From: Nitrospiraceae bacterium
GTDB lineage: Bacteria; Nitrospirota; Thermodesulfovibrionia; UBA6902
Direction: 5' to 3'
Length of the DNA stretch: 64,000 nt
Assembly: GCA_020356065.1 (NCBI GenBank)
Contig: CP070632.1
Span: 58,665 to 122,664 of the forward strand
Shown: positions 43,121 through 62,592 of the stretch, piece by piece
Position numbering within the stretch: the stretch's first letter is position 1
Layout: every line of letters begins with the position of its first letter
Position numbers and translations under genes: made by a program
The notes under the pieces: model-generated
The model's database searches: none
What the model was told of the DNA's origin: nothing
The model's input: only the letters and a program-made list of their open reading frames with translations

Positions 43121-44020
43121 TTACAGGAACACTTTCAGCCTGCTCGGCCCGTTTTCAGCCGTAAGCGGTTTCAAGACAAACCCGGAAACTCCCATCTGGT
43201 TGCATCTGTCAATCACGGTATAGTCAGTTACAGATGTCAGCATGACAATGGGTATATTGCTGTCTGTTGCCCGGATTTTTTTCAACGCCTCATCCCCGGT
43301 CATCTCGGGCATGACAATATCCATAAAGATAATCGCCGGTTTATCTTTTGCATGCATCTCGACTGCCTCTACTCCGTTTGCAGCTTCCACAATATTTTCA
43401 TAACCCAGGGAGTTGAGGAATCTCTTCATGCTGCGCCTGATAAACTTTGAATCATCAACAACCAGAATCTTTTCACCTGTCTGTATTTTGGGAGCATCCT
43501 TTGCCTCGCCTGCTTTGGAGTCGATCATAAGAAGGTTAAAATAGAACCTGCCCACATCATCAATATGGACTGGTACGGAAATGATTTCCCGAACATTTTC
43601 CAAAAGCGACTTCATGTTTTCAGTGTTAAGAATAAAATAAGGTGGCTCAAACTGTATGCCAAGTCTTTGCGTTTCAAGGCACTGTGTAGCATTTCCGATT
43701 GCGGTGTTGCCCCACTCGGCCAAGGCAGACTGCATCTCTTCATTTATTTCAGGCAATTCGTCTGATTCATTGAGTATATTAAACCTGAGGCGGTTGCCGA
43801 TGGCAAGAGCAGTTTCGACATAATGATGTATAAGAATAACCATTTCAAGGTTGCCGTGAGTTTTGGCTGCAATAGCATATCCCTTAAATCTGAAATCCTC
43901 TACGTTATCTGTAAATGCTTCACCTACATGCGCCTTGAGATGAGCCATTACCTCCAGGCTATTAATCGTTTCATCAATAAACGGTTTCAGCATGTTTGTT
44001 TTGATCTCTGTAGCTATCAT
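43121..44020 (-). CDS. CheC/CheX-like phosphatase domain fused to a CheY-like receiver domain
   Basis: C-terminal REC 'ILVVDDSKFIRRSMKRFL...IIFMDIVMPEMTG...LKP'. The N-terminal 150 aa resemble the CheC/CheX fold. Confidence 0.55.
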   Translation of the reverse strand: MIATEIKTNMLKPFIDETINSLEVMAHLKAHVGEAFTDNVEDFRFKGYAIAAKTHGNLEMVILIHHYVETALAIGNRLRFNILNESDELPEINEEMQSALAEWGNTAIGNATQCLETQRLGIQFEPPYFILNTENMKSLLENVREIISVPVHIDDVGRFYFNLLMIDSKAGEAKDAPKIQTGEKILVVDDSKFIRRSMKRFLNSLGYENIVEAANGVEAVEMHAKDKPAIIFMDIVMPEMTGDEALKKIRATDSNIPIVMLTSVTDYTVIDRCNQMGVSGFVLKPLTAENGPSRLKVFL

Positions 44021-47740: not shown

Positions 47741-49363
47741 TTGCTTAACCTGACATTAAAAAATATTGCTCACAAAGAAGACTTTTCTGCACAGAAAGAT
47801 GTTTCATTGAGAGATGTAACGGAATTAATGAATAAAAATGGAAAAGGTGTTGTTGTCATCCTTGATGGTAAGAAAATTGCGGGCATTCTTACCGAAAGGG
47901 ACATAGTGAAATGCCTTCACAAGGGAATAGATCTGGATACTAATGTTACGGGTTTTGCCGATAAAAAACTTGTTGCGACAAGAGGAGACAGAACAGTCGG
48001 ATATGCACTATCCCTTATGATAGAAAATAATATCAGACGTATAATCATTACAGACGGGTTCCTGGATGAATTTATTGGAGTTGTTACACAGCAGGATTTG
48101 CTGAAATATCTTGAAGAGGATTTTTACCGAGCAACCATCAAAGTCAAACATATCATAGACCGATTGGGGCATTTGTTTAACGTGGAACCTGATGACTCAC
48201 TGAAAAGTGTTCTGGATCAGATGGTTGGAAATCAAATAAGTGCGGTTGCCATCATCAGTGACGGTGTAGCTGAGGGAATTATCTCTGAGAAAGACATATT
48301 GCGATTGGCCTGTGAAAATATATCTCTTGACAGCAGAGTTCATGAACATATGTCAACCCCGGTGATCAATGTACATCTCGATAATGCGCTTGTCGACATT
48401 GTGACCATAATGAATGAATTGCAGATCAATAGAGTTATCGTACATGATGACAGCGGTATCGCTACCAATGTCATTACCACGAGAGATGTGTTGAAAAGCC
48501 TGGAGAGTGATTATAGTGCATTCCTTGAGCGCAAACTGAGGAGTGCCAAGGAAATTCTTAACCTTTTGCCGGAAATGATGGTAGAAATAGCTGAAACCGA
48601 GTCTGACCAGTTAATTGTGTGGGCAAACGATAAGGTGACGAGGAAGTTCGGCATGGACCTCCTTGACCAGCCGATAACTGAGTTTCTGCCCAGGGAGCAG
48701 TGGCATAAGATTTACACAACACTGAGAGACTCGGGGAAAGTAGAAAATATAAAAATGAAGAAGGGAGACAGCATTCTTGAGCTTTCCGGGTTTTATCTGA
48801 ACGTTGACAGTAATCAGAATAATGGAAAAATCCAGCTCATTATCAGAGATATCACGGATGATATACGATTGTCTACTTCTGACCCCTTGACAGGTTTATA
48901 TAACAGACGGTTTGTGAATGAATATTTAATAAAGGAGATCGCACGATTTAAAAGGTCGAACGAATCTTTTTCACTTGTGATGTGTGACATTGATAACTTC
49001 AAGGAGATAAATGACACGTACGGCCATTTGGCCGGTGATATAGTTCTTAAGTCATTGGCACAGCTTGTCACTCCTACGTTAAGGCAGCTTGATATCTTCG
49101 GCAGATACGGCGGCGATGAGTTTGTTTTAATTCTGCCCGGGACGGACAGTACATTTGCCTCAAATGTAATTGACAGACTGAGGATAAAAATAGAAAGCAT
49201 TCCAATAGCTCTTCCCGCAGGAGTAAAAAAATCTATAACTGCCAGTTTTGGTGTTGCAACATTTCCGATGGACGGAGAATCTTCAGATGATCTGCTGATC
49301 AAGGCCGATGAGCGATTATATAAGGCGAAGAGTCTTGGAAAAAACAAGGTTGTCTTTGTATGA
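47741..49363 (+). CDS. Diguanylate cyclase: 4xCBS - PAS - GGDEF, with I-site
   Basis: 'RYGGDEF' active site preceded by an RxxD I-site 'RQLD'. CBS pairs at the N-terminus. Confidence 0.85.
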   Translation: MLNLTLKNIAHKEDFSAQKDVSLRDVTELMNKNGKGVVVILDGKKIAGILTERDIVKCLHKGIDLDTNVTGFADKKLVATRGDRTVGYALSLMIENNIRRIIITDGFLDEFIGVVTQQDLLKYLEEDFYRATIKVKHIIDRLGHLFNVEPDDSLKSVLDQMVGNQISAVAIISDGVAEGIISEKDILRLACENISLDSRVHEHMSTPVINVHLDNALVDIVTIMNELQINRVIVHDDSGIATNVITTRDVLKSLESDYSAFLERKLRSAKEILNLLPEMMVEIAETESDQLIVWANDKVTRKFGMDLLDQPITEFLPREQWHKIYTTLRDSGKVENIKMKKGDSILELSGFYLNVDSNQNNGKIQLIIRDITDDIRLSTSDPLTGLYNRRFVNEYLIKEIARFKRSNESFSLVMCDIDNFKEINDTYGHLAGDIVLKSLAQLVTPTLRQLDIFGRYGGDEFVLILPGTDSTFASNVIDRLRIKIESIPIALPAGVKKSITASFGVATFPMDGESSDDLLIKADERLYKAKSLGKNKVVFV

Positions 49364-49528: not shown

Positions 49529-51535
49529 ATGTTAGAAGAGGATAAAAGACAATTTGCCCGGTACCGAAAACAGTCATTATGTGATGTAAGAATAGGGTCA
49601 GAACTCCATAAAGGAAAAGTCGTTGATTACTCAAACGGTGTTGGGATACTCATAAAAAAAGTTCCGGAACTGGTAAAAGGTGCCATTGCTGAAATAGAAA
49701 TTTTAGACTATGAAATTAAATTCAGCGGCGAAGTGGTGTGGACAGAAGATTTTGGATATCAGCTCAGAGTCGGATTCAGAAGGCTCAACAACCTGAGGGG
49801 CAATCTTAAACATTACAGACTGATTGACATCCTTTTAGGTCTCAGCAAGAGCAGAAAAACGGGAATACTTGAGATAATCGTAGGTTCGACAGTAAAAAAG
49901 ATATATATTGACAATGGACTGAAGATTTTTGCTGTATCTACAAATACAAATGACCGCCTCGGAGAGTATCTTTTAACACAGGGTAAAATTACCCTTGAAG
50001 AATATAATCAGGCCTCTTACCTCGTTGAAAAAAAGGGACAGCGACTGGGTCAGGTTCTTATCGATCTTGGTTATTTAAAACCGAGTGATCTTGCCCCGTC
50101 AGTCCAACATCAGGTTGAAGAGATTATTATGGGCCTCTTTAATATAGATGAAGGCATATTTGAATTTAAAGAAGTCCCGCTCCCAACGGATGAACCAATA
50201 AAACTCCAAGTCAGCACGCCAAATCTCATATACAAGGGAATCAAGAGAATTAACAGCTTTCCCATGATAGATAAGATGTGTCCACCATTAGATACAGTAT
50301 TTAATCTGGCCAAGGACCCGCTCCCGCTGTTTCAGTCGCTCGACATTTTGGATGCCGATAAAAAAGTCCTATCGTATGTGAACGGAATCCATCCACTAAA
50401 AGGGATATTAACCCTTTCTCATACAAGTAATTTTGAGACACTTAAATCTGTTATCGCCCTTATGACCATAGGACTCATTACTATCAAGGGAGAAAATGAC
50501 ACTCCTGTTAAACTTCCCCTTGAAGTGATCTTTGGCGAACCTGACAAAACTCAACCGGTGGAACCAGATGAAGAGACACAGGAAGAGGTAACGACTGATA
50601 TTGGTGCAGGAGCTGCTGAAATGACAGACACTCAAACGAATATTGTTGAGAAACAGGAGAACGTTAAAGAACCCACAAAAGAGGAAGAGTCGGCAGTACC
50701 AGCATTGCCTGAAGCTCCCGCGTCTGAAATAACTGATGAAGATTCACATGACGATGAATCGGCTGATGTGAATGCAGAAGCCACTGAATGGGCAGTTGAA
50801 TATACGAATATGGTCGAGAATCAGGAGAACATGAAAGCGTCTGATGAGGAGGAATTGGCGATATCAACACCGCCTGAAGTTCCTGTTTCTGAAATAAATG
50901 AAGATACACATTCAGAAGAGATGGCTTCATTACGCGCAGAGAGTGCTGAAGAGACAATCGAACATGTGAAAACAAGTGAGAGCATCAGTAAAATGAATGT
51001 GATATCAGAGTCACACCTGTCTTTTATAGATGAGCATGATGAGATACAGGCTGAGAATATTACTGAACAGACAGATGAAAAACAATCCATTACATACACA
51101 GCAGGTTATGTCAATGAAACATCCGGAGTTCCTGAACCTGCTGCCATGGAGTCAGAAATGGCGGCTGCAGCAGGAGAGGAAGCATACGTACAGATGAATG
51201 ATATGACGTCTGAAAACACATCAACTGACGTGCTGCCGAACACTGTTCTGCAAAATGACGAAAGTGCTGACACTGCAGCAAAACCGAAGTCCAGAAAAAT
51301 ACTCATCATCTCAATTGTTATGATAATCATTCTTGTTGGAGCCATTGTTCCGATCATTTATGAATATATTACAATGCCATTATCTCCACCTGCCGTGACA
51401 ACTATAAAAAAATCTGAGTCTTTATCACCTGTGAACAATGAGGCATCAGAAAAAGTGAATGCAGGAATGCCGCAAGACAAATCATCATTCCCTGTCTTTC
51501 GGGAGGATGCAATAAAAAAGTTTCTCAACGAGTAA
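49529..51535 (+). CDS. PilZ - DUF4388 - acidic repeat linker - transmembrane helix protein (putative c-di-GMP receptor)
   Basis: 'RQFARYR' (RxxxR) plus 'DYSNGVG'. DUF4388-like 'LIDILLGLSKSRKTGILEI'. E/S/T-rich repeat. Transmembrane helix 'ILIISIVMIIILVGAIVPII'. Confidence 0.6.
   Translation: MLEEDKRQFARYRKQSLCDVRIGSELHKGKVVDYSNGVGILIKKVPELVKGAIAEIEILDYEIKFSGEVVWTEDFGYQLRVGFRRLNNLRGNLKHYRLIDILLGLSKSRKTGILEIIVGSTVKKIYIDNGLKIFAVSTNTNDRLGEYLLTQGKITLEEYNQASYLVEKKGQRLGQVLIDLGYLKPSDLAPSVQHQVEEIIMGLFNIDEGIFEFKEVPLPTDEPIKLQVSTPNLIYKGIKRINSFPMIDKMCPPLDTVFNLAKDPLPLFQSLDILDADKKVLSYVNGIHPLKGILTLSHTSNFETLKSVIALMTIGLITIKGENDTPVKLPLEVIFGEPDKTQPVEPDEETQEEVTTDIGAGAAEMTDTQTNIVEKQENVKEPTKEEESAVPALPEAPASEITDEDSHDDESADVNAEATEWAVEYTNMVENQENMKASDEEELAISTPPEVPVSEINEDTHSEEMASLRAESAEETIEHVKTSESISKMNVISESHLSFIDEHDEIQAENITEQTDEKQSITYTAGYVNETSGVPEPAAMESEMAAAAGEEAYVQMNDMTSENTSTDVLPNTVLQNDESADTAAKPKSRKILIISIVMIIILVGAIVPIIYEYITMPLSPPAVTTIKKSESLSPVNNEASEKVNAGMPQDKSSFPVFREDAIKKFLNE
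50641..50960 (+). repeat. Degenerate tandem duplication of about 162 bp (54 aa) inside the acidic linker of the PilZ-DUF4388 gene
   Basis: 'IVEKQENVKEP...PEAPASEITDEDSHD' against 'MVENQENMKAS...PEVPVSEINEDTHSE'. Confidence 0.6.
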
Positions 51536-51801: not shown

Positions 51802-52713
51802 TTAATTAATGATCGCAAGAAGTTGATTCGAGGTCTTTTTATCGATATTCTTTATTTTGAGGTATATATCCATGGCCTTATCTTTATTGTCGTTCTTTGC
51901 ATATGTAATGCACAGACCCGTCAGGGCATCTAAATGCCCTGGATCAAGACGTAAGGCATTGTTAAACGCATCAATTGCCTCATCATACCTTTTAAGAAAA
52001 AAGTACGAATACCCGAGACCATTATGAAACTCCGGGATGTCCGGGGACAGCCGTGTGGCTTTTTCAAGGTATCCCCGGGCCTCTGAAGGTTTATCCATCT
52101 TCAGAAGGACCATTCCGAACCATGCGTTAAGGTCAGGGTGATCCGGCTGTTGTCTTATTTCCGCAGTTATAATATCAAACGCAGCAGTATAATCATTATT
52201 CTTGACAAGAGTCTCAATTTCTTTCAGGTTCTCCTTTAATCGCACATCTCTGACATTTTTGTCCTCATCTTCAGATGCAATGGAAACAGCTTGGTCAAGG
52301 GCAGGGGATGCAGATGATCTGTCCCCAGGCTCTTTCATTTTCACAGTGGATGAATCGGAATAAAGCTTCACGATCCTTTCCTCTTTTATATATGCTTTCA
52401 TCACAACAGCACTGGGTAGTTTTGATTCGACCGAACTGAAGAATTTCTCAACCAAATTATAATCCGTAAATTTACCCAGTCTGACAGAGTAGTATTTGCC
52501 GATTTTCTCTATTCTTAAATGGTCCAGTTGAGTTTCATCCAAAGTATTTGCAATCGAATCAAACTGCTCCTGTGCATCGTTCACATTTGAAAAGCTGCTT
52601 ACCTGAATTGTATGAAACAGGTTCGATGAATAAACTTTCAGAGGTAACAGCATTAAGAACAAGAATAAGGTTGCATATCCTGCTGCAGATACATTAAAGA
52701 CATTTTTTCGCAT
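51802..52713 (-). CDS. SPOR domain + TPR repeat protein with N-terminal signal-anchor
   Basis: SPOR-like 'IQVSSFSNVNDAQEQ...YYSVRLGKF'. C-terminal TPRs 'AWFGMVLLKMDKPSEARGYLEKATRLSPD'. Confidence 0.6.
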   Translation of the reverse strand: MRKNVFNVSAAGYATLFLFLMLLPLKVYSSNLFHTIQVSSFSNVNDAQEQFDSIANTLDETQLDHLRIEKIGKYYSVRLGKFTDYNLVEKFFSSVESKLPSAVVMKAYIKEERIVKLYSDSSTVKMKEPGDRSSASPALDQAVSIASEDEDKNVRDVRLKENLKEIETLVKNNDYTAAFDIITAEIRQQPDHPDLNAWFGMVLLKMDKPSEARGYLEKATRLSPDIPEFHNGLGYSYFFLKRYDEAIDAFNNALRLDPGHLDALTGLCITYAKNDNKDKAMDIYLKIKNIDKKTSNQLLAIIN

Positions 52714-54891: not shown

Positions 54892-55386
54892 ATGGCTGAA
54901 TATTCATTTGATGTAGTAAGCAGGGTCGATCTTCAGGAGGTTTTAAATGCGATCCAGCAGGCAATGAAGGAAATCAAACAGAGATTTGACTTCAGAGGCA
55001 GTAAGAGCAACCTGGAACTGGATCAGGGTAACAGCCTGATAACGATAACGTCTGATGATGAGTATAAACTGAAAAGTGTAATCGATATCCTTGAGAATAA
55101 GCTCATCAAAAGAAAGGTGCCGGTCAAGGCAATCAGCTACGGTAAAGTAGAGGATGCCGCCGGAAGCACAGTGAGACAGGTTGCTACTCTTCAGCAGGGC
55201 ATCCCGACAGAGAAAAGCAAGGAAATTGTCAAAATAGTGAAACATTCCAAACTGAAAGTACAGTCCGAGATCCAGAAAGACCAGCTCCGGATCAGGGCCA
55301 AGAAAAAAGACGATCTGCAGGCAGTTATTGCATTGTTAAAGGAAAAAGATCTGGGTATTCATATAGAGTTTGTGAATTACAGGTGA
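54892..55386 (+). CDS. yajQ: YajQ-family (UPF0234) nucleotide-binding protein
   Basis: 164 aa with the YajQ fold pattern. Family members bind c-di-GMP in xanthomonads. Confidence 0.75.
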   Translation: MAEYSFDVVSRVDLQEVLNAIQQAMKEIKQRFDFRGSKSNLELDQGNSLITITSDDEYKLKSVIDILENKLIKRKVPVKAISYGKVEDAAGSTVRQVATLQQGIPTEKSKEIVKIVKHSKLKVQSEIQKDQLRIRAKKKDDLQAVIALLKEKDLGIHIEFVNYR

Positions 55387-55479: not shown

Positions 55480-57597
55480 ATGAGTGTATGGAATGATATA
55501 AGGCATGATTTTAAAACTGTTTTTACCATGGATCCTGCTGCCAGGAGCAAGGTTGAGGTCATTATCTCCTATTCAGGATTTCATGCTATAGTTTTTCACA
55601 GGTTAAATCATTACCTCTGGAATGCCAGGATACCCATACTACCCCGTTTTTTTTCGCAGGTAGCAAAGATATTTACCGGTATAGAGATACATCCTGCTGC
55701 AAAGATTGGCCGTGGGTTTTTCATAGACCACGGGATGGGTGTGGTGATAGGTGAGACTACGGAGATAGGAGAAAACTGTCTGCTGTATCAGGGAGTGACT
55801 CTTGGGGGTACGGGCAAGGAAAAGGGAAAGAGACATCCTACCTTAAAGAATAATATCGTTGTTGGCACCGGAGCAAAAGTGCTCGGGGCGATTACCATTG
55901 GAGACAACGTTAAAATAGGGGCCAATTCGGTTGTGCTTCATGATGTTCCCAAAGACTCCATTGTGGTAGGAGTGCCTGGAAGGGTCATTAAGAAAAAGGT
56001 TGTGAAGATGTTTGAAGATGGTCCGGTTGAGATGCTTGACCATGTTCATATTCCTGACCCGGTCGAAGATAAGTTTGAAAAGCTGAATAACATTATTCAT
56101 GAACTTGAAAGGAGAATCAGCACATTGGAAGGCAAGGGAGAGACCATAAAGGTTTATAACACAATGAGCGGAAAGAAAGAGGAGTTCATTCCCTTCACTC
56201 CGGGCAAGGTCAATATGTATGTGTGCGGGATTACCGCCTATGACGTATGTCACCTCGGACATGCAAGGAGCGCTATCGTGTTCGACATTATTAAGAGATA
56301 TCTGAGATACAGCGGTTATGATGTGACCCATGTGAGAAATATTACTGACATTGATGATAAGATTATAGCCCGATCAGCACAGGAGGGCATTTCCACTGAG
56401 GAAGTCGCCAAGAAATACACTGATGAATATTACAATGACATGGAGCTTCTGGGTGTCAGCAGGGCTGATATTGAGCCAAACGCTACTGACCATATCCATG
56501 AAATGGTAGAAACCATTAAAGGACTTATTGAAAAGGGATACGCATATCCGGTTGATGGTGACGTTTATTTTGAAGTGAGCAGGTTCTCCGGTTACGGGAA
56601 ACTGTCCGGGAAAAATATCGATGATCTCAAGGCAGGAGCCAGGGTCGATATTGATGAGAGAAAGAGGAGCCCTCTTGATTTTGCACTCTGGAAATCATCT
56701 AAGGAAGGTGAGCCATTCTGGGAAAGCCCATGGGGCAAGGGAAGGCCGGGCTGGCACATTGAGTGCACTGCCATGTCTTCAAAATATCTTGGGACAAGCT
56801 TTGATATACACGGCGGCGGAGCAGACCTCATATTCCCCCATCACGAAAATGAGCTTGCGCAGAGCGAAGCCTATTCGGACGAGCCTTTCGTGAAATACTG
56901 GATGCATAACGGTTTTATTACAGTGGACAAGGAAAAGATGTCTAAATCTCTCGGCAATTTCTTCACAATCAAGGAGATCTTAAGCAGATATGAACCCGAA
57001 GTAGTCAGATATTTTCTGCTCTCCGCTCATTATAGAAGTCCGATAGAGTTTTCTGACGTGCAGCTCAATGAAGCAGAGCTGTCGATTGACAGATACTATA
57101 CCACTGTCCTGCGGATCGATGATTTTCTGCAGTCAGAAAGTAATATTGACAGGATCACATCATCCGCTGAACTTGAAGACATTATGTCCGGATTCAGGCA
57201 CAAGTTCCATAATGCAATGAATGATGATTTTAATACTGCATCAGCACTGGGAATTATTTTTGAACTTATCAGAGAGGTAAACAGGTTTCTTGATTCCAAA
57301 CCTGCAGGTCAAAGGGCCAGGGACTTTGTTAAGCAGGCTTATGATCTGCTTGCTGAAATAGGCGGGGTGCTGAATATTTTTAATAAAACACCTGAAGAGT
57401 GGTACCGGGCGCTTATGAAAGTCAAGAAGATAGACATTACAGAAGATGATCTTCTCAAAAAAATTGATGCACGGCAGAATGCAAGGAAGAACAAGGACTG
57501 GTCTGCTGCGGATGATATAAGAAATGAACTCGCAGCAAAGAATATAATCCTTGAAGATAAAAAAGACGGGACTTCCTGGAAGATCAAGGTGGGTTAG
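55480..57597 (+). CDS. cysE-cysS: Fusion of serine O-acetyltransferase (CysE) with cysteinyl-tRNA synthetase (CysS) in one 705-aa ORF
   Basis: N-terminal 'IHPAAKIGRGFFIDHGMGVVIGETTEIG...LGGTGKEKGKRHP' matches the SAT hexapeptide domain. From about residue 225, 'MYVCGITAYDVCHLGHARS' (HIGH) and 'KMSKS' mark a class-I CysRS. Confidence 0.8.
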   Translation: MSVWNDIRHDFKTVFTMDPAARSKVEVIISYSGFHAIVFHRLNHYLWNARIPILPRFFSQVAKIFTGIEIHPAAKIGRGFFIDHGMGVVIGETTEIGENCLLYQGVTLGGTGKEKGKRHPTLKNNIVVGTGAKVLGAITIGDNVKIGANSVVLHDVPKDSIVVGVPGRVIKKKVVKMFEDGPVEMLDHVHIPDPVEDKFEKLNNIIHELERRISTLEGKGETIKVYNTMSGKKEEFIPFTPGKVNMYVCGITAYDVCHLGHARSAIVFDIIKRYLRYSGYDVTHVRNITDIDDKIIARSAQEGISTEEVAKKYTDEYYNDMELLGVSRADIEPNATDHIHEMVETIKGLIEKGYAYPVDGDVYFEVSRFSGYGKLSGKNIDDLKAGARVDIDERKRSPLDFALWKSSKEGEPFWESPWGKGRPGWHIECTAMSSKYLGTSFDIHGGGADLIFPHHENELAQSEAYSDEPFVKYWMHNGFITVDKEKMSKSLGNFFTIKEILSRYEPEVVRYFLLSAHYRSPIEFSDVQLNEAELSIDRYYTTVLRIDDFLQSESNIDRITSSAELEDIMSGFRHKFHNAMNDDFNTASALGIIFELIREVNRFLDSKPAGQRARDFVKQAYDLLAEIGGVLNIFNKTPEEWYRALMKVKKIDITEDDLLKKIDARQNARKNKDWSAADDIRNELAAKNIILEDKKDGTSWKIKVG

Positions 57598-57602
57598 AGA
57601 TG

Positions 57603-58670
57603 TTATTCTGTAATCCTCTTTCCATTGAGGAAGAAATGCACGCCCGTATCAGCCAACGAAAGAGTTATTTCTGCTCCTCTGCGTATCTGAAAACCTGAAG
57701 CAGCTTTTGCAGTAATTCTCTTTCCGTTAACGCTGACATAAATAAGGGTCTCAGGTCCGAGATGTTCGGTCAGTTCGACAGTTCCTGTAATCGGTCCAGC
57801 GCCGGGAGACAGGGACTCTGGCCTGATACCCATTATAAGATCCTTGCCTGTATACTGCATCAGCTCAGTTCTCGATGATACGTCAATCATCAGAGGTCCT
57901 GATTCAAAAAATATTTTGCCATCTCTATGAAGAGTTGTGCCGGTGAAAAGATTAATCTGTGGAGTCCCAATGAAGGTTGCTACAAACAGGTTGGAGGGTT
58001 TATGGTAGACCTCATCAGGAGTGCCTGTCTGTTGAATCTCTCCCTGATCAAAAAGAATGATTTTTTCCCCGAGTGTCATTGCCTCCACCTGGTCGTGAGT
58101 AACATATACAGTTGTTACCTTTAACTTCTGATGAAGATTTGCGAGCTCTACCCTCATGGTACTGCGCAGTTTAGCATCAAGGTTTGAAAGGGGCTCGTCA
58201 AAGAGAAAAAGCTTTGGGTTCCTTACAATAGCTCGCCCTATCGCAACGCGTTGTCTCTGTCCACCAGAAAGTTCTTTAGGCTTTCTGTCAAGGAAGTTAT
58301 AAAGCTCAAGCAGTGATGCTGTTTCTTTTACTTTAAGGTCTATATCATTCTTTGGCATGTTCCGCATTTTCAAGGCAAATGCCATATTATCAAATACGCT
58401 CATATGGGGGTACAATGCATAACTCTGAAATACCATGGCAATGTCCCTGTCTCTGGGAGTAAGATTGCTGACGTCTCTGTCGTTAATGAAAATACTGCCT
58501 TGATCAGACTGGTCCAGACCTGCTATCAGCCTGAGAACAGTGGTTTTTCCACATCCTGACGGCCCCAGGAGGACACAAAATTCTCCGTGATGTATTTCAA
58601 ATGATACATCTCTTATCACCTCAGTATTACCAAATGATTTTTTCAGATTGCTTACTTTGAGACTGCCCAT
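57603..58670 (-). CDS. MalK/UgpC-type ABC sugar-transport ATPase (orphan, with C-terminal TOBE-like domain)
   Basis: 'GPSGCGKTT', '[14 protein letters not shown]', '[11 protein letters not shown]'. No permease gene adjacent. Confidence 0.8.
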
Positions 58671-58980: not shown

Positions 58981-59667
58981 ATGACCGACATTCCCATGGA
59001 TGATAATGAAATAAACAAAGATTCCCTGGTCAACAATGCAGAAGAACTGAATAAATCTTATAGTGGAGAAACGGCAAATATGAGTGAAATGGATGAGCAA
59101 AGCAGATCAGACAGCAGCAGATCGTCTGATAATGATTTACATAACAACGTGTCTGCCAATGGATCTGAAACAGATAATAACGAAGCGTCAGGCGAAGAGT
59201 ATGCAGACCTGAATCAACCGTATGTACCTGACAGGCGGCAGGAAGAGCGAGATGGCCGTGACCGGAGGAGACATGAGCGTTCGGGGTTTACATATCCTGT
59301 GGGGCTGAAGATTTTTAAAAATCAGACATCAAATACATCTCACGATGGATATATTGAAGACATATCTATTAGCGGGGCAGGCGTAAAGTTTGAGGACAAA
59401 TATGGCAGAGTACAATTGGAAGGTCTTGCCGGTTCAAGTATCAAGATGATTGTCAGAATGCCGCGTGGTGATGATATAGCTTTATTGTCTGTTATAAAAT
59501 GGATCAGAAGAGATGTTACTGACAATGCGATTGTCAAAGTCGGCATTCAATTTCAGAGAATGGAAGACTGGCAGTTAAAGACAATAAAACAGCTGATCAG
59601 TCTTAAGAACAAGGACCACAATATGATGTGGAACCTTTTTGATAACTATGAAAAAAATGTCAGGTAG
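58981..59667 (+). CDS. PilZ domain protein with acidic, Ser-rich disordered N-terminus
   Basis: 'RDRRRHER' (RxxxR) plus 'DISISGAG' ((D/N)xSxxG). Confidence 0.6.
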   Translation: MTDIPMDDNEINKDSLVNNAEELNKSYSGETANMSEMDEQSRSDSSRSSDNDLHNNVSANGSETDNNEASGEEYADLNQPYVPDRRQEERDGRDRRRHERSGFTYPVGLKIFKNQTSNTSHDGYIEDISISGAGVKFEDKYGRVQLEGLAGSSIKMIVRMPRGDDIALLSVIKWIRRDVTDNAIVKVGIQFQRMEDWQLKTIKQLISLKNKDHNMMWNLFDNYEKNVR

Positions 59668-59673
59668 GGAACC

Positions 59674-60639
59674 ATGGATGAGATAAAGAAAAAGTTATGG
59701 GCCATTGGCGGAGGCAAGGGAGGTGTCGGAAAAAGCATCGTATCGATTATGCTCGGGGCTTCCCTTGCCAGACAGGGGAAAAAAGTCATACTGGTAGATG
59801 CGGATCTTGGAGGAAGTAATCTTCATACTCTTGTTGGTATTAAATATCCTCTTTATACACTTGCAGATTTTATTAACAGGCAGGTTGAGAATATTGAAGA
59901 GGTCGTGATGGATACCCCGGTAGAAAACATGCAACTCATATGCGGAGCTGATGATATACTTGGCATAGCCAATCCGAAAAACACGCAAAAGAACCGCCTC
60001 TTTAATCATCTGAAGAATCTAAAGGCTGATTATATTGTGCTGGATCTCGGCGCCGGTGCTTCGTTTACAACAATGGATTTTTTCCTTTTTGCCACCAATA
60101 AAATATGTGTCCTTACTCCACAGATAACATCAATTCAAAATGCATATGGATTTATTAAGGCCAGTATGTACAGAGGATTAATGCAGGTCTTCAGAGGTGA
60201 ACCAGGGGCGCAGGATATGGTGAGACGTGCCAGTTCTGCTATTGAGGGTGAGAATATTGATTCAATAGATACACTAAAAGATTCTCTGAAAAATCTTGAC
60301 GAGCATTTTGAAAGTGACCTGAATACATACATCGAAAGTTTAAAAATCAAGACTATTGTAAATATGGTCAGAAATGACAGAGAAAAAGAGGTAGGCAATA
60401 TTGTCAGGTCTGTTGCAGAAAACTACCTGAATCTGCCTCTTGAGAATTATGGTTATGTGCCATATGACAGGATACTGGTTAATTCGATAAATCACATGCC
60501 CGAGTTTCTTAAGAACAGAAAAGACAGCATGTCAAGCATGAGTTTTTATGAAATAGCCGGAAGTATTATCCGCGACAGTGAGCAGCCGTCCACATCTGAA
60601 AGCCGGTTCAGTGTGAAGATCCCTGCAAGCAGGCTATAA
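59674..60639 (+). CDS. MinD/ParA-family P-loop ATPase (FlhG/FleN-like)
   Basis: Deviant Walker A 'GGGKGGVGKS' and the 'DADLGGSNLH' motif. 321 aa. Confidence 0.75.
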   Translation: MDEIKKKLWAIGGGKGGVGKSIVSIMLGASLARQGKKVILVDADLGGSNLHTLVGIKYPLYTLADFINRQVENIEEVVMDTPVENMQLICGADDILGIANPKNTQKNRLFNHLKNLKADYIVLDLGAGASFTTMDFFLFATNKICVLTPQITSIQNAYGFIKASMYRGLMQVFRGEPGAQDMVRRASSAIEGENIDSIDTLKDSLKNLDEHFESDLNTYIESLKIKTIVNMVRNDREKEVGNIVRSVAENYLNLPLENYGYVPYDRILVNSINHMPEFLKNRKDSMSSMSFYEIAGSIIRDSEQPSTSESRFSVKIPASRL

Positions 60640-60864: not shown

Positions 60865-62076
60865 TCAAGGGGAGACAGGTCTTCTTACCAGATCATTGGC
60901 CCTTACTCCTGGTTCTGAAGGGATGATTACCATCTGTTCATTTCTGGCTGACTCAATAGGCAGCCCCTCTCTGCTTAATATCTTGTCTACGACATACGTC
61001 CTGTTTTCAATGCCATGAGAAAGAAACTGGATGGTATCTCCGAGTTTGAGAGTATTTCTCAATGCCAACTGAACATGTCCGTTGTTCAGTGACGTGACAA
61101 TTCCGACGAGTTCATGGCTCATTGAATATTTGTTCTTCTCATCATGATTGTAATCTCTATCCGGCTGCTTGCCGAAAAACATTCCGGTCGTATATCCCCT
61201 GCTTGAGAACATTGATAATTCATTCATCGATTGCTTACTCACTTTATAAGGTTTGTGATGAAGCCCGTCGATAGCCTCCCTGTATGTTTTTACAACTCCC
61301 GCAACATAGTTGATGCCTTTCATCCTGCCTTCTATTTTAAAACTGTTAATTCCCGCATCATACAGCTTGTCTAGATGCTCAATCATGCACAAGTCCCTTG
61401 AGCTCATCACATACGTACCCCTGTCATTCTCATACACCGGATGCCGTTCTTCAGGTCGCATCTCTTCCATTAAGGTATAGTTCCATCTGCATGAATTGGT
61501 GCATTCACCAAGATTGCCTGATCTGTTTGCCAAAAAACTGCTAATATAACATCTGCCAGAATAGGAAATGCATATCGCTCCATGGACAAAGCACTCAAGA
61601 TCAATGGATACGTTATCACGTATCTCTTTTATTTCATCCAGGGACAGTTCTCTTGCAAGTACGAGTCTCCTTGCACCAAGCTGCTCCCAGAACCTGGCAG
61701 CTCTGTGGTTAGTAATATTTGCCTGTGTGCTGATGTGCACCGGGATCTCAGGAACAGAATCAATGGCCATTTCTACCACTCCCGGATCTGAAATGATAAT
61801 ACCGTCGGGCCTGATGTTTCTCAGCTCATGAAGATGATGCCTGATCATTGCAATATCCCTGTTATGAGGGAAGATATTAACTGTGATGTACAGTTTCTTC
61901 CCCTTACGGCGTATTAACCCGGCAGCATCCTGGAGTTCTTTGAAAGTGAAGTTGTCGGCCCTGGCCCTGAGACTCAACTCGGAAATGCCCATGTATACGG
62001 CATCGGCACCGTAGTGCAGCGCAGTTACAAGTTTTTCAAAATTACCCGCGGGAGCAAGCAGTTCAGGCTTTTTCAT
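60865..62076 (-). CDS. Peptidase U32 family protein (likely Fe-S RNA/quinone hydroxylase such as RlhA/TrhP/UbiU)
   Basis: U32 core with the conserved Cys cluster 'CISYSGRC...GECTNSC'. Confidence 0.8.
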   Translation of the reverse strand: MKKPELLAPAGNFEKLVTALHYGADAVYMGISELSLRARADNFTFKELQDAAGLIRRKGKKLYITVNIFPHNRDIAMIRHHLHELRNIRPDGIIISDPGVVEMAIDSVPEIPVHISTQANITNHRAARFWEQLGARRLVLARELSLDEIKEIRDNVSIDLECFVHGAICISYSGRCYISSFLANRSGNLGECTNSCRWNYTLMEEMRPEERHPVYENDRGTYVMSSRDLCMIEHLDKLYDAGINSFKIEGRMKGINYVAGVVKTYREAIDGLHHKPYKVSKQSMNELSMFSSRGYTTGMFFGKQPDRDYNHDEKNKYSMSHELVGIVTSLNNGHVQLALRNTLKLGDTIQFLSHGIENRTYVVDKILSREGLPIESARNEQMVIIPSEPGVRANDLVRRPVSP

Positions 62077-62274: not shown

Positions 62275-62592
62275 TTATGACTTTATCAGATGGGCATGTG
62301 TCATTGAATACTCATTGAATAACTCGATATAGTCCAGCCCCTCTTCAGCAGTGATATGTAAAAAGACTTCACATCCCACGCAGCTTTCAAGCTTTGATGT
62401 ATATGTGCCCTGGATCTTGCTACAGCAGATTGTTCCTTCCGCTGACCAGCATGATCGTCCTGCATTGATTCCTCCATTTGCTCCGTTTTTTGATGTGCAC
62501 GTGGATGCAGGACATGCTCCACGCTTTGCAGCCTTTTTTCCGCCCAGCTCTCTGCCACACTTTTTAATGTCCCAGCAGTTTAGTTTATCCAT
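62275..62592 (-). CDS. Small Cys-rich protein (105 aa), unknown function
   Basis: Eleven Cys in 75 residues: 'NCWDIKKCG', 'GACPASTC', 'SCWSAEGTICC', 'CVGCEVF'. Confidence 0.4.
   Translation of the reverse strand: MDKLNCWDIKKCGRELGGKKAAKRGACPASTCTSKNGANGGINAGRSCWSAEGTICCSKIQGTYTSKLESCVGCEVFLHITAEEGLDYIELFNEYSMTHAHLIKS

Follow-up and report, generated by a model that had tools for sequence, protein, structure and literature searches.

Chromosomes, carboxysomes, flagella, chemoreceptor arrays, and the sites of division are all arranged by ATPases of the ParA/MinD class, and, to our knowledge, the question of how environmental signals enter their cycles is still largely open. This question is raised in a compact form by a locus of a Nitrospiraceae bacterium (contig CP070632.1), in which a gene for a PilZ protein lies immediately upstream of a gene for a MinD/ParA-family ATPase. 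The locus was studied within a 64-kb window, i.e., the whole stretch of 64,000 nucleotides that was analysed. What does a PilZ protein do next to such an ATPase, and could it be the route by which cyclic di-GMP (c-di-GMP) reaches it? A first-pass annotation of the window suggested that the two proteins form a c-di-GMP-responsive positioning module. The functional linkage of the two genes and the plausible competence of the PilZ protein for c-di-GMP binding are supported by the comparisons described below, whereas a role in positioning is one that we only infer. On balance, it appears somewhat more likely than not that the pair constitutes a two-component nucleotide switch of the ParA/MinD type, with a c-di-GMP receptor as the partner. 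The pair itself comprises the following features.

58981..59667, + strand: gene for the PilZ partner, 228 amino acids (aa) (open reading frame (ORF) and Pfam PilZ match)
59668..59673, + strand: spacer GGAACC, 6 nt, separating the PilZ and ATPase genes (sequence read)
59674..60639, + strand: gene for the ATPase, 321 aa, ParA/MinD class, distinct PilZ-linked clade (ORF and Pfam CbiA, AAA_31, and ParA matches)

Conservation of the gene pair and of the partner tail

The pairing of the two genes is far beyond chance. One genome per GTDB species was scanned, which yielded at least 580 relatives of the ATPase, and the loci analysed here are 80 of these. As judged by tblastn, 44 loci encode a relative of the PilZ protein on the strand of the ATPase gene and directly upstream of it; when the evidence is combined, the partner is found directly upstream in 53 of the 59 evaluable loci of the ATPase clade (90%) and in none of the 16 loci outside this clade. 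The pair is present in Nitrospirota, Desulfobacterota, and other phyla, and independent metagenome contigs and contigs of metagenome-assembled genomes (MAGs) repeat the same PilZ-ATPase adjacency. Hence the juxtaposition on which the first-pass annotation built its proposal is a conserved one. The nearest relative is found in a Thermodesulfovibrionia MAG, with an ATPase of 82% identity, which makes it probable that the window belongs to this class of Nitrospirota, and ATPases from Nitrospirota and from Deltaproteobacteria MAGs still share approx. 60% identity over their full length. In a relative with 84% identity, the pair and a divergent ABC gene are kept, whereas the downstream gene is different. 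It is thus the pair itself that forms the conserved unit.

The two genes are tightly spaced. The PilZ stop codon (TAG) occupies positions 59665-59667, the ATPase gene begins with the ATG at 59674, and both ORFs share one frame. The gap had been described as 7 bp at first pass; its tightness stands, but the actual spacer is 6 nt long (a value of seven is obtained when counting from the last base of the stop codon). A purine-rich stretch, AGGTAGGGA, overlaps the PilZ stop codon and, judged by eye, could be a ribosome-binding site for the ATPase gene. In the closest group of loci, the tblastn match to PilZ stops 6-37 nt before the match to the ATPase, and in some contigs the two genes overlap.

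The partner protein was described at first pass as a 228-aa protein with a C-terminal PilZ domain and an acidic, disordered N-terminus, and this description holds, the disorder being a prediction. The Pfam PilZ model (PF07238) matches aa 94-206 with 46.2 bits against a cut-off of 22.5. The features of the protein are as follows.

58981..59232, + strand: acidic low-complexity N-terminal region, aa 1-84 (composition, variability, and a predicted local distance difference test score (pLDDT) below 50)
59266..59280, + strand: RxxxR c-di-GMP-binding motif, R96-R-H-E-R100 (conservation)
59359..59376, + strand: [D/N]hSxxG c-di-GMP-binding motif, D127-I-S-I-S-G132 (conservation)
59605..59658, + strand: conserved C-terminal tail KNKDHNMMWNLFDNYEKN, aa 209-226, KDHNMMWNLW-like (conservation and tail-specific profile)

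The N-terminal region contains 21 D/E residues versus four K/R residues, along with 26 S/N residues. It is the most variable region of the partner, differing in length and sequence even among close orthologues, and it is missing from orthologues of 140-200 aa. The two PilZ motifs show the opposite behaviour. Residues R96 and R100, as well as D127, I128, S129, and G132, are invariant in the alignment of close orthologues. Across 45 partner proteins, both arginines and the serine and glycine of the second motif are at least 90% conserved, and its aspartate and hydrophobic residue are at least 60% conserved. Both motifs fit the canonical definitions given in the survey by Galperin and Chou (bioRxiv 10.1101/814665). 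Since both are kept, the partner is plausibly competent to bind c-di-GMP. When the partner profile was compared with 1.84 billion representative proteins, only 70 were matched at E<=1e-3; the partner belongs to a small, distinct PilZ subfamily rather than to the generic PilZ proteins. A search of the PDB by sequence with the partner gave no match, and a Pfam scan of the partner found no YcgR N-domain.

The most invariant stretch of the partner is neither of the two motifs but the tail, KNKDHNMMWNLFDNYEKN, which falls outside the Pfam PilZ match. In an AlphaFold2 (AF2) model of the partner (mean pLDDT 44.8), six strands (105-191) and a helix (196-209) are followed by an extra helix (215-227), i.e., the tail is predicted, at low confidence, as a second helix beyond the canonical PilZ helix. 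In distant lineages, the tail recurs as GEQNLIWSLW or KDIKELWDxWD. A hidden Markov model (HMM) of the tail alone, comprising 17 positions, was run on 18,942 six-frame segments from the 80 loci and the window. It produced 53 matches at E<=0.01, every one of them directly upstream of the ATPase, and seven of the matched loci lay outside the set on which the HMM had been trained. Away from the ATPase, nothing significant was found among the 18,942 segments (best E=0.33). Judging from this distribution, the tail is a candidate for the peptide that contacts the ATPase.

Family assignment of the ATPase

Which member of the ParA/MinD class does the partner accompany? The first-pass annotation recognised a MinD/ParA-family ATPase with a deviant Walker A motif, which is confirmed by Pfam matches above the cut-offs and by the motifs listed below.

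59707..59736, + strand: deviant Walker A motif GGGKGGVGKS, aa 12-21, with signature lysine K15 and with K20 (invariance)
59797..59814, + strand: Switch I/Walker A' motif DADLGG, aa 42-47 (invariant; aligns with DADLGL of FleN)
60031..60057, + strand: Walker B region YIVLDLGAG, aa 120-128 (aligns with the Walker B of FleN and FlhG)
60190..60345, + strand: family-specific helical insertion, aa ~173-224 (helices 177-187, 198-208, and 210-223 in the AF2 model)
60589..60636, + strand: non-conserved C-terminal tail, predicted to be disordered, aa 306-321 (pLDDT below 50 and variability)

In the family alignment, G12-G14, K15, G16, G17, G19, K20, and S21 are invariant, as are D42, A43, D44, L45, G46, and G47 of the second motif and L123, D124, L125, G126, A127, and G128 of the third. 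As far as can be read from these residues, the ATPase has the full catalytic set for the formation of ATP-sandwich dimers and for ATP hydrolysis (K15, K20, D42, D44, and D124). An AF2 model based on an alignment of 21 sequences (pLDDT 80.9; predicted template modelling score, pTM, 0.83) was compared with the PDB by Foldseek, which returned a probability of 1.00 for FlhG, FleN, MinD, and Soj. The best matches were FlhG (4rz2) and FleN (5j1j), both with E=2e-16 and with target-normalised template modelling (TM) scores of 0.80-0.84, followed by MinD and then by Soj/ParA; the Mrp-type HypB ranked lower. A comparison of sequences with the solved structures gave the same order (FleN/FlhG approx. 68 bits, MinD 43-58, Mrp/NBP35 group 30-33).

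Nevertheless, likeness in fold is not accompanied by the features of the individual families. No NCBIfam model reaches its own cut-off. The MinD model TIGR01968 scores 86.3 bits versus a cut-off of 212.9 and covers aa 10-158 only, and NF008079 scores 48 versus 508; the corresponding values are 36.3 versus 348 for ApbC, 44.7 versus 450 for MrpORP, 23.1 versus 157.9 for BcsQ (TIGR03371; 19.4 versus 21.3 for PF06564), and 24.6 versus 154 for the CpaE-homologue model TIGR03815. In a neighbour-joining tree (Poisson distances), the PilZ-linked ATPases group in a single clade of 58 taxa, which has a bootstrap value of 87% and from which all five references (E. coli MinD, Mrp, and BcsQ, and the cores of FleN and FlhG) are excluded. 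A tblastn search of a plasmid collection for annotated FlhG/ParA references gave a single irrelevant match, and an exact look-up of the window ATPase in public assemblies gave no entry. The family is further marked by the helical insertion: the interval corresponding to aa 163-226 measures 62-64 residues in 58 of 58 clade members and in 12 of 12 members of a PilZ-less sister clade, versus approx. 10 residues in FleN and FlhG. Beyond approx. aa 303, both the sequence and the length of the family members diverge. Since this C-terminus is variable and predicted to be disordered, the family has no conserved membrane-targeting helix of the MinD/FlhG type. A hydrophobic-moment test was not used for this purpose because it missed the known membrane-targeting sequence in the control, MinD from E. 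coli. Taken together, the sequence comparisons place the ATPase outside FlhG, MinD, Mrp, and BcsQ.

Two readings of the locus depend directly on this assignment. According to one of them, the ATPase would be an FlhG protein that controls flagellar number or placement, and the PilZ protein would be a YcgR-like brake. This reading follows the automatic annotation of JGI, which labels many of the homologues "flagellar biosynthesis protein FlhG", and it agrees with FlhG and FleN being the nearest solved structures. However, the label fails the defining features of FlhG. The enhancer motif DQAxxLR, an FlhG feature (PMC12826062), is present in none of the 70 family members, and there is no room for the enhancer helix because only approx. 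eight residues precede the P-loop strand. Neither flhF nor other flagellar genes are found among the scanned window ORFs, and none is recurrent in the 80 loci. Moreover, the clade excludes FlhG and FleN, the insertion of approx. 50 residues is missing from both, and the PilZ protein is devoid of the YcgR N-domain. A flagellar function is therefore highly improbable, and the first-pass description "MinD/FlhG-like" is apt for the fold but not for the function, as DQAxxLR, an FlhF partner, and a conserved C-terminal membrane-targeting element are all lacking. The second reading, in which the ATPase would be an iron-sulfur carrier of the Mrp/ApbC/NBP35 type and its adjacency to PilZ meaningless, is scarcely tenable. 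It could draw on a 55-bit match of PF10609 (NUBPL iron-transfer P-loop NTPase) to the N-terminal half and on the weak NCBIfam matches to MrpORP and ApbC. Nonetheless, the two NCBIfam matches lie far below their cut-offs, Mrp-type structures rank well below FlhG, FleN, and MinD by both sequence and fold, and the pair is conserved. The E. coli Mrp control carries CSNC, but in the family a CxxC motif lacks conservation and is found, at any position, in just three of 70 members. Clustering with Mrp/ApbC carriers had been named at first pass as a finding that would speak against the module; by the tree, models, fold, and CxxC distribution, the ATPase lies outside that group.

The PilZ protein as a candidate signal adaptor

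Across lineages, the ATPase remains nearly constant while its partner changes. In the nearest genome, the partners share 65% identity versus 82-84% for the ATPases, and the architecture of the partner varies over an ATPase identity range of approx. 40-84%. Four forms of the partner have been found, i.e., a stand-alone protein of 140-230 aa; a (TPR)-cNMP_binding-PilZ protein of approx. 390 aa in Desulfobacterales; a PilZ domain followed by hydrophobic segments resembling transmembrane segments; and a class of 306-321 aa with an N-terminal region (approx. 170 residues) of no assigned family. The ATPase of one lineage carries an additional PilZ domain at its C-terminus, and a complete upstream partner with the tail is also kept. 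Because the modules of the partner vary and the ATPase hardly does, it is reasonable to regard the partner as an adaptor for signal input and the ATPase as a conserved engine.

The cNMP-binding form of the partner is part of a larger arrangement. At Desulfobacterales-type loci (L030-L062 and others), it belongs to a four-gene cassette, present in 21-23 loci, in which genes -3 to 0 encode, in order, a membrane protein of approx. 300 aa, a protein of approx. 107 aa, the (TPR)-cNMP_binding-PilZ protein with the tail, and the ATPase. The membrane protein gives weak AMIN-like matches below the Pfam cut-off, and the approx. 107-aa protein has no Pfam match. Further downstream, some cassette loci contain another PilZ gene together with genes for a Roadblock/LC7 protein and a Ras/Arf-like GTPase.

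Some other apparent architectures have been rejected. A tail peptide fused to the N-terminus of the ATPase in L019 and L023 is not matched by the tail HMM in either locus, and of two tail-only mini-partners, one (L012) reaches only E=0.046 and the other (L016) gives no match. An apparent PilZ-ATPase fusion in L028 consists of two parts that lie in different frames. Finally, the P0119 loci, in which the sensor seemed to have moved to the ATPase and the partner to be truncated, result from an artefact in the call of a 102-aa gene; the reading frame of the partner in fact continues upstream, and its product has a complete PilZ domain with both motifs.

How might such a partner act? ParA/MinD (A/D) ATPases normally have a partner encoded next to them, and hydrolysis is stimulated when a short peptide of this partner binds the ATP-dimer (PMC11407121). 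If the pair is indeed a c-di-GMP-receiving switch of this kind, the PilZ protein would take the role that MinE, ParB, McdB, or BcsR has in other systems and would contact the ATPase via its conserved, KDHNMMWNLW-like C-terminal tail helix. Binding of c-di-GMP near the barrel could alter the availability of the tail, and the level of the second messenger would thereby be coupled to the ATPase cycle, i.e., to dimerisation, hydrolysis, or release from a surface. Such a role for the partner fits the observations, as the tail is exclusive to the clade, the genes are tightly spaced, a fusion exists, and a constant ATPase is accompanied by a fast-evolving modular partner. The gene pair, its domains and motifs, its conservation, the clade, and the specificity of the tail are observed; it is c-di-GMP binding, contact via the tail, gating, and any positioning role that we infer here. 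There are also precedents for the individual steps: in MrkH, the C-terminal helix is the c-di-GMP-dependent output element (PilZ family survey), and FleN acts together with the c-di-GMP receptor FleQ (PDB titles).

Several points weigh against this interpretation. The partner peptides known so far are usually N-terminal (PMC11407121), whereas the tail of the PilZ protein is C-terminal, and the tail could have another role, such as stabilising the PilZ fold or binding a third protein. The confidence of the partner model is so low (pLDDT 44.8) that it fixes neither the three-dimensional fold nor the placement of the tail relative to the barrel. No partner has been detected at six of the 59 evaluable clade loci. 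Judged by its C-terminus, where no conserved helix was seen, the ATPase has no recognisable element for binding to a surface. No conserved cargo gene lies beside the pair, the neighbours of which differ even among close relatives, and the separate status of the clade comes from a neighbour-joining tree with five references, two of which are partial.

A further-reaching version of the switch can be formulated as a tentative proposal, which, in its entirety, is less likely to be correct than its core. The pair would represent an undescribed, widespread class in which c-di-GMP exposes or hides the tail, which in turn binds ATP-dimers formed by a dedicated clade of ATPases and, by docking there, sets hydrolysis or release. 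The level of c-di-GMP would then decide where or whether an envelope machine, most plausibly a type-IV-pilus-like one, assembles, and swapped input modules (the cNMP-binding domain, the membrane anchor, or the N-domain) would re-wire the engine.

It is instructive to compare the pair with the systems that it resembles. MinD-MinE, ParA-ParB, and McdA-McdB likewise consist of a deviant-Walker-A ATPase beside a small, faster-evolving partner with a short conserved terminal peptide. In the present pair, however, the partner is a putative PilZ receptor, the peptide is C-terminal rather than N-terminal, and the ATPase lacks a conserved membrane helix at its C-terminus and has a helical insertion of approx. 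50 residues. Among solved structures, the closest relatives are FlhG and FleN, and FleN also acts with a c-di-GMP receptor; nonetheless, the putative sensor here is a PilZ protein and not an AAA+ enhancer-binding protein, and the ATPase forms a separate clade without the DQAxxLR helix, FlhF, a flagellar context, or a conserved membrane-targeting sequence. In the cellulose secretion system of E. coli, the c-di-GMP sensor BcsE binds BcsQ, a MinD-like SIMIBI NTPase that is stabilised by BcsR, a small partner encoded upstream (PMC7439463). The roles of the upstream partner and the sensor would here be merged in one protein, which contains PilZ rather than a degenerate REC-GGDEF module, and no bcs genes are nearby. 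With MapZ/PA4608, the PilZ protein of the FimX-PilZ-PilB system, and MrkH, in which c-di-GMP signals are passed on by protein contact, the partner shares RxxxR and [D/N]hSxxG and, presumably, the canonical barrel; unlike the stand-alone PilZ adaptors and MrkH, it belongs to a distinct subfamily whose conserved tail is predicted to add a helix and whose genes are obligately linked to a single clade of ATPases. TadZ/CpaE is a ParA/MinD-class ATPase dedicated to the Tad pilus machine, with an N-terminal receiver-like domain and a tad/cpa locus. It would be a functional analogue if the pilus lead discussed below is right, but the present ATPase has no N-terminal receiver-like domain and no tad locus.

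What is new is therefore the combination, i.e., a dedicated ATPase clade with an insertion and a PilZ subfamily with an exclusive tail and swappable inputs; the parts are of known kinds. Full-text searches, in which subscription journals were thinly covered, the ParA/MinD review (PMC11407121), and PilZ surveys yielded no account of a ParA/MinD ATPase that has a PilZ protein as its partner. In the known links to c-di-GMP (FleQ-FleN and BcsE-BcsQ), the sensor is a large regulator of one machine, whereas here it would be a minimal PilZ partner. If the contact is real, the pair would provide a compact and testable model of how a second messenger directly controls an A/D ATPase, for which a ligand, a peptide, and two small soluble proteins suffice, and the widespread automatic "FlhG" label on these genes would have to be corrected. 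Starting points for identifying the cargo are offered by the lineage-specific links to PilB/MshE-type operons and by the links of the sister clade to MreB, RodZ, and ScpB.

Candidate cargo and the surroundings of the pair

The best lead to a cargo is a type-IV-pilus-like machine, which appears in four lineages, all outside this window. Three MAG contigs have genes for an MshEN-T2SSE protein, T2SSF, and an N-methyl pilin downstream of the pair and in the same orientation, and MshEN-T2SSE genes lie within approx. 6 kb of the pair in L023, L031, L033, L035, L036, and L039. The pair might thus localise or regulate a PilB/MshE-type machine in response to c-di-GMP, in analogy to TadZ/CpaE and to PilZ-FimX-PilB; this would be a cargo-specific version of the switch and is compatible with it. 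In addition, genes for Roadblock/LC7 and Ras/Arf-like GTPase proteins, which resemble the MglB/MglA polarity module, occur near the pair in one subclade, the -3 gene of the four-gene cassette gives its weak AMIN-like matches, and, 8 kb upstream of the pair, the window encodes a PilZ-PATAN (DUF4388) protein beside a GGDEF cyclase. In cyanobacteria, PilB1, the motor of the type IV pilus, is bound by PATAN regulators (bioRxiv 10.1101/2021.06.11.447907). However, the 64-kb window itself is free of pilus genes, which are near the pair in only six of the 80 loci, and these six represent just a few lineages related to one another; pilus neighbours are lacking for other proteins of the approx. 310-aa partner class, the enrichment is not significant (6/64 versus 0/16 outside the clade), and the AMIN matches of the cassette fall below the Pfam cut-off. 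A pilus cargo is thus possible but doubtful. A MinD/PomZ/MipZ-like role in division, shape, or chromosome organisation, responsive to c-di-GMP through PilZ, is less likely again. It is suggested mainly by the sister clade, which carries the same family-specific insertion and whose ATPase genes sit between scpB (upstream) and a gene for DnaJ and HTH_25, i.e., a RodZ-type HTH (downstream). In a Latescibacterota MAG (L065 1300-3432, + strand), the ATPase even shares a 710-aa ORF with a complete MreB domain (aa 376-695; 346 bits). Within the PilZ-linked clade, Maf, a Mur ligase, and MurJ are scattered among the neighbours, a SPOR and TPR protein is encoded 6 kb upstream of the pair in the window, and an ATPase identity of approx. 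60% across phyla would fit a universal cellular target. Nonetheless, the division-type contexts are for the most part those of the sister clade or of individual lineages, and the MreB fusion, seen on one MAG contig, may be an artefact of assembly or of a frameshift. No minC, minE, or ftsZ is adjacent to the pair, the MinD model stays far below its cut-off (86 versus 213 bits), and a conserved C-terminal membrane-targeting element is lacking.

It is also conceivable that the two proteins are co-transcribed and co-inherited without touching each other. Both could act on a third component, or the ATPase could, like FleN, be an anti-activator of a transcription factor, with PilZ signalling elsewhere. 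FleN is a precedent for such a non-positioning role, and the window encodes a sigma-54 activator, though at a distance of 55 kb. Against this, the tail is exclusive to this ATPase clade, a PilZ-ATPase fusion exists, the spacing is short or the genes overlap, and for A/D ATPases an adjacent small gene normally encodes the direct partner (PMC11407121). The absence of contact is therefore rather improbable, and a switch in which the PilZ protein acts on the ATPase directly is the interpretation that we retain.

Two details concern the genes named above. In L033 (6914-9256, - strand) and L035, a 779-aa GAF-MshEN-T2SSE ATPase is encoded convergently to the pair; this PilB/MshE-type motor potentially has two small-molecule inputs. 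In the sister clade, the DnaJ/HTH_25 gene occupies position +1 in L061, L067, L070, L071, and L078, and scpB occupies position -1 in L061, L067, L071, and L078.

In the window, the pair is flanked by two genes on the opposite strand.

57603..58670, - strand: UgpC/MalK-like ABC ATPase gene (divergent from the PilZ gene)
60865..62076, - strand: U32 peptidase/TrhP-like gene (convergent with the ATPase gene)

With a divergent gene upstream and a convergent gene downstream, the PilZ-ATPase pair appears as an isolated two-gene unit. The UgpC/MalK-type ATPase (454 bits versus a cut-off of 432) has no permease or binding-protein gene alongside, and its divergent arrangement with the PilZ gene is retained in the close relatives L001, L002, and L081. 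The first-pass statement that no flagellar or Bcs genes are adjacent is borne out by the 32 larger ORFs of the window that were scanned, among which no flagellar, Bcs, Min, or pilus genes were found; tblastn with pilus genes against the 64-kb window gave no match either. With E. coli minCDE as the control, minC and minE were found neither in the window nor among the recurrent neighbours of the loci. A scan for promoters and terminators around the pair gave nothing above the level of shuffled sequence, and the window contains neither the companion genes of subgroup B nor a second copy of either gene of the pair. Apart from the signalling genes and the individual observations that follow, the remaining scanned ORFs are of the housekeeping type.

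Further genes related to c-di-GMP lie upstream of the pair. A diguanylate cyclase with CBS-CBS-PAS-GGDEF architecture (47741-49360, + strand) is directly followed by a gene whose 668-aa product combines PilZ at the N-terminus with DUF4388/PATAN (49529-51532, + strand); at 8-11 kb from the pair, this PilZ-PATAN fusion and its neighbouring cyclase gene resemble a further output module for c-di-GMP. A third c-di-GMP-related gene less than 12 kb from the pair encodes a DUF520/YajQ-family protein (54892-55386, + strand; 204 bits), a family of which some members are reported to bind c-di-GMP (PMC6988422).

The window also encodes several proteins of unusual composition. A CheX-like phosphatase domain is fused to a receiver domain (43121-44017, - strand), with no chemotaxis operon around it. 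The SPOR and TPR protein mentioned above (51802-52713, - strand) combines an N-terminal SPOR domain, which binds septal peptidoglycan, with C-terminal TPR repeats. A 105-aa, cysteine-rich protein with two CW domains (62275-62592, - strand) matches NCBIfam NF045718 with 85.9 bits. Finally, a 705-aa ORF (55480-57597, + strand) comprises an N-terminal hexapeptide-repeat region resembling serine acetyltransferase (Hexapep and SATase_N) and a complete cysteinyl-tRNA synthetase, and thus looks like a fusion of cysteine synthesis with cysteine charging.

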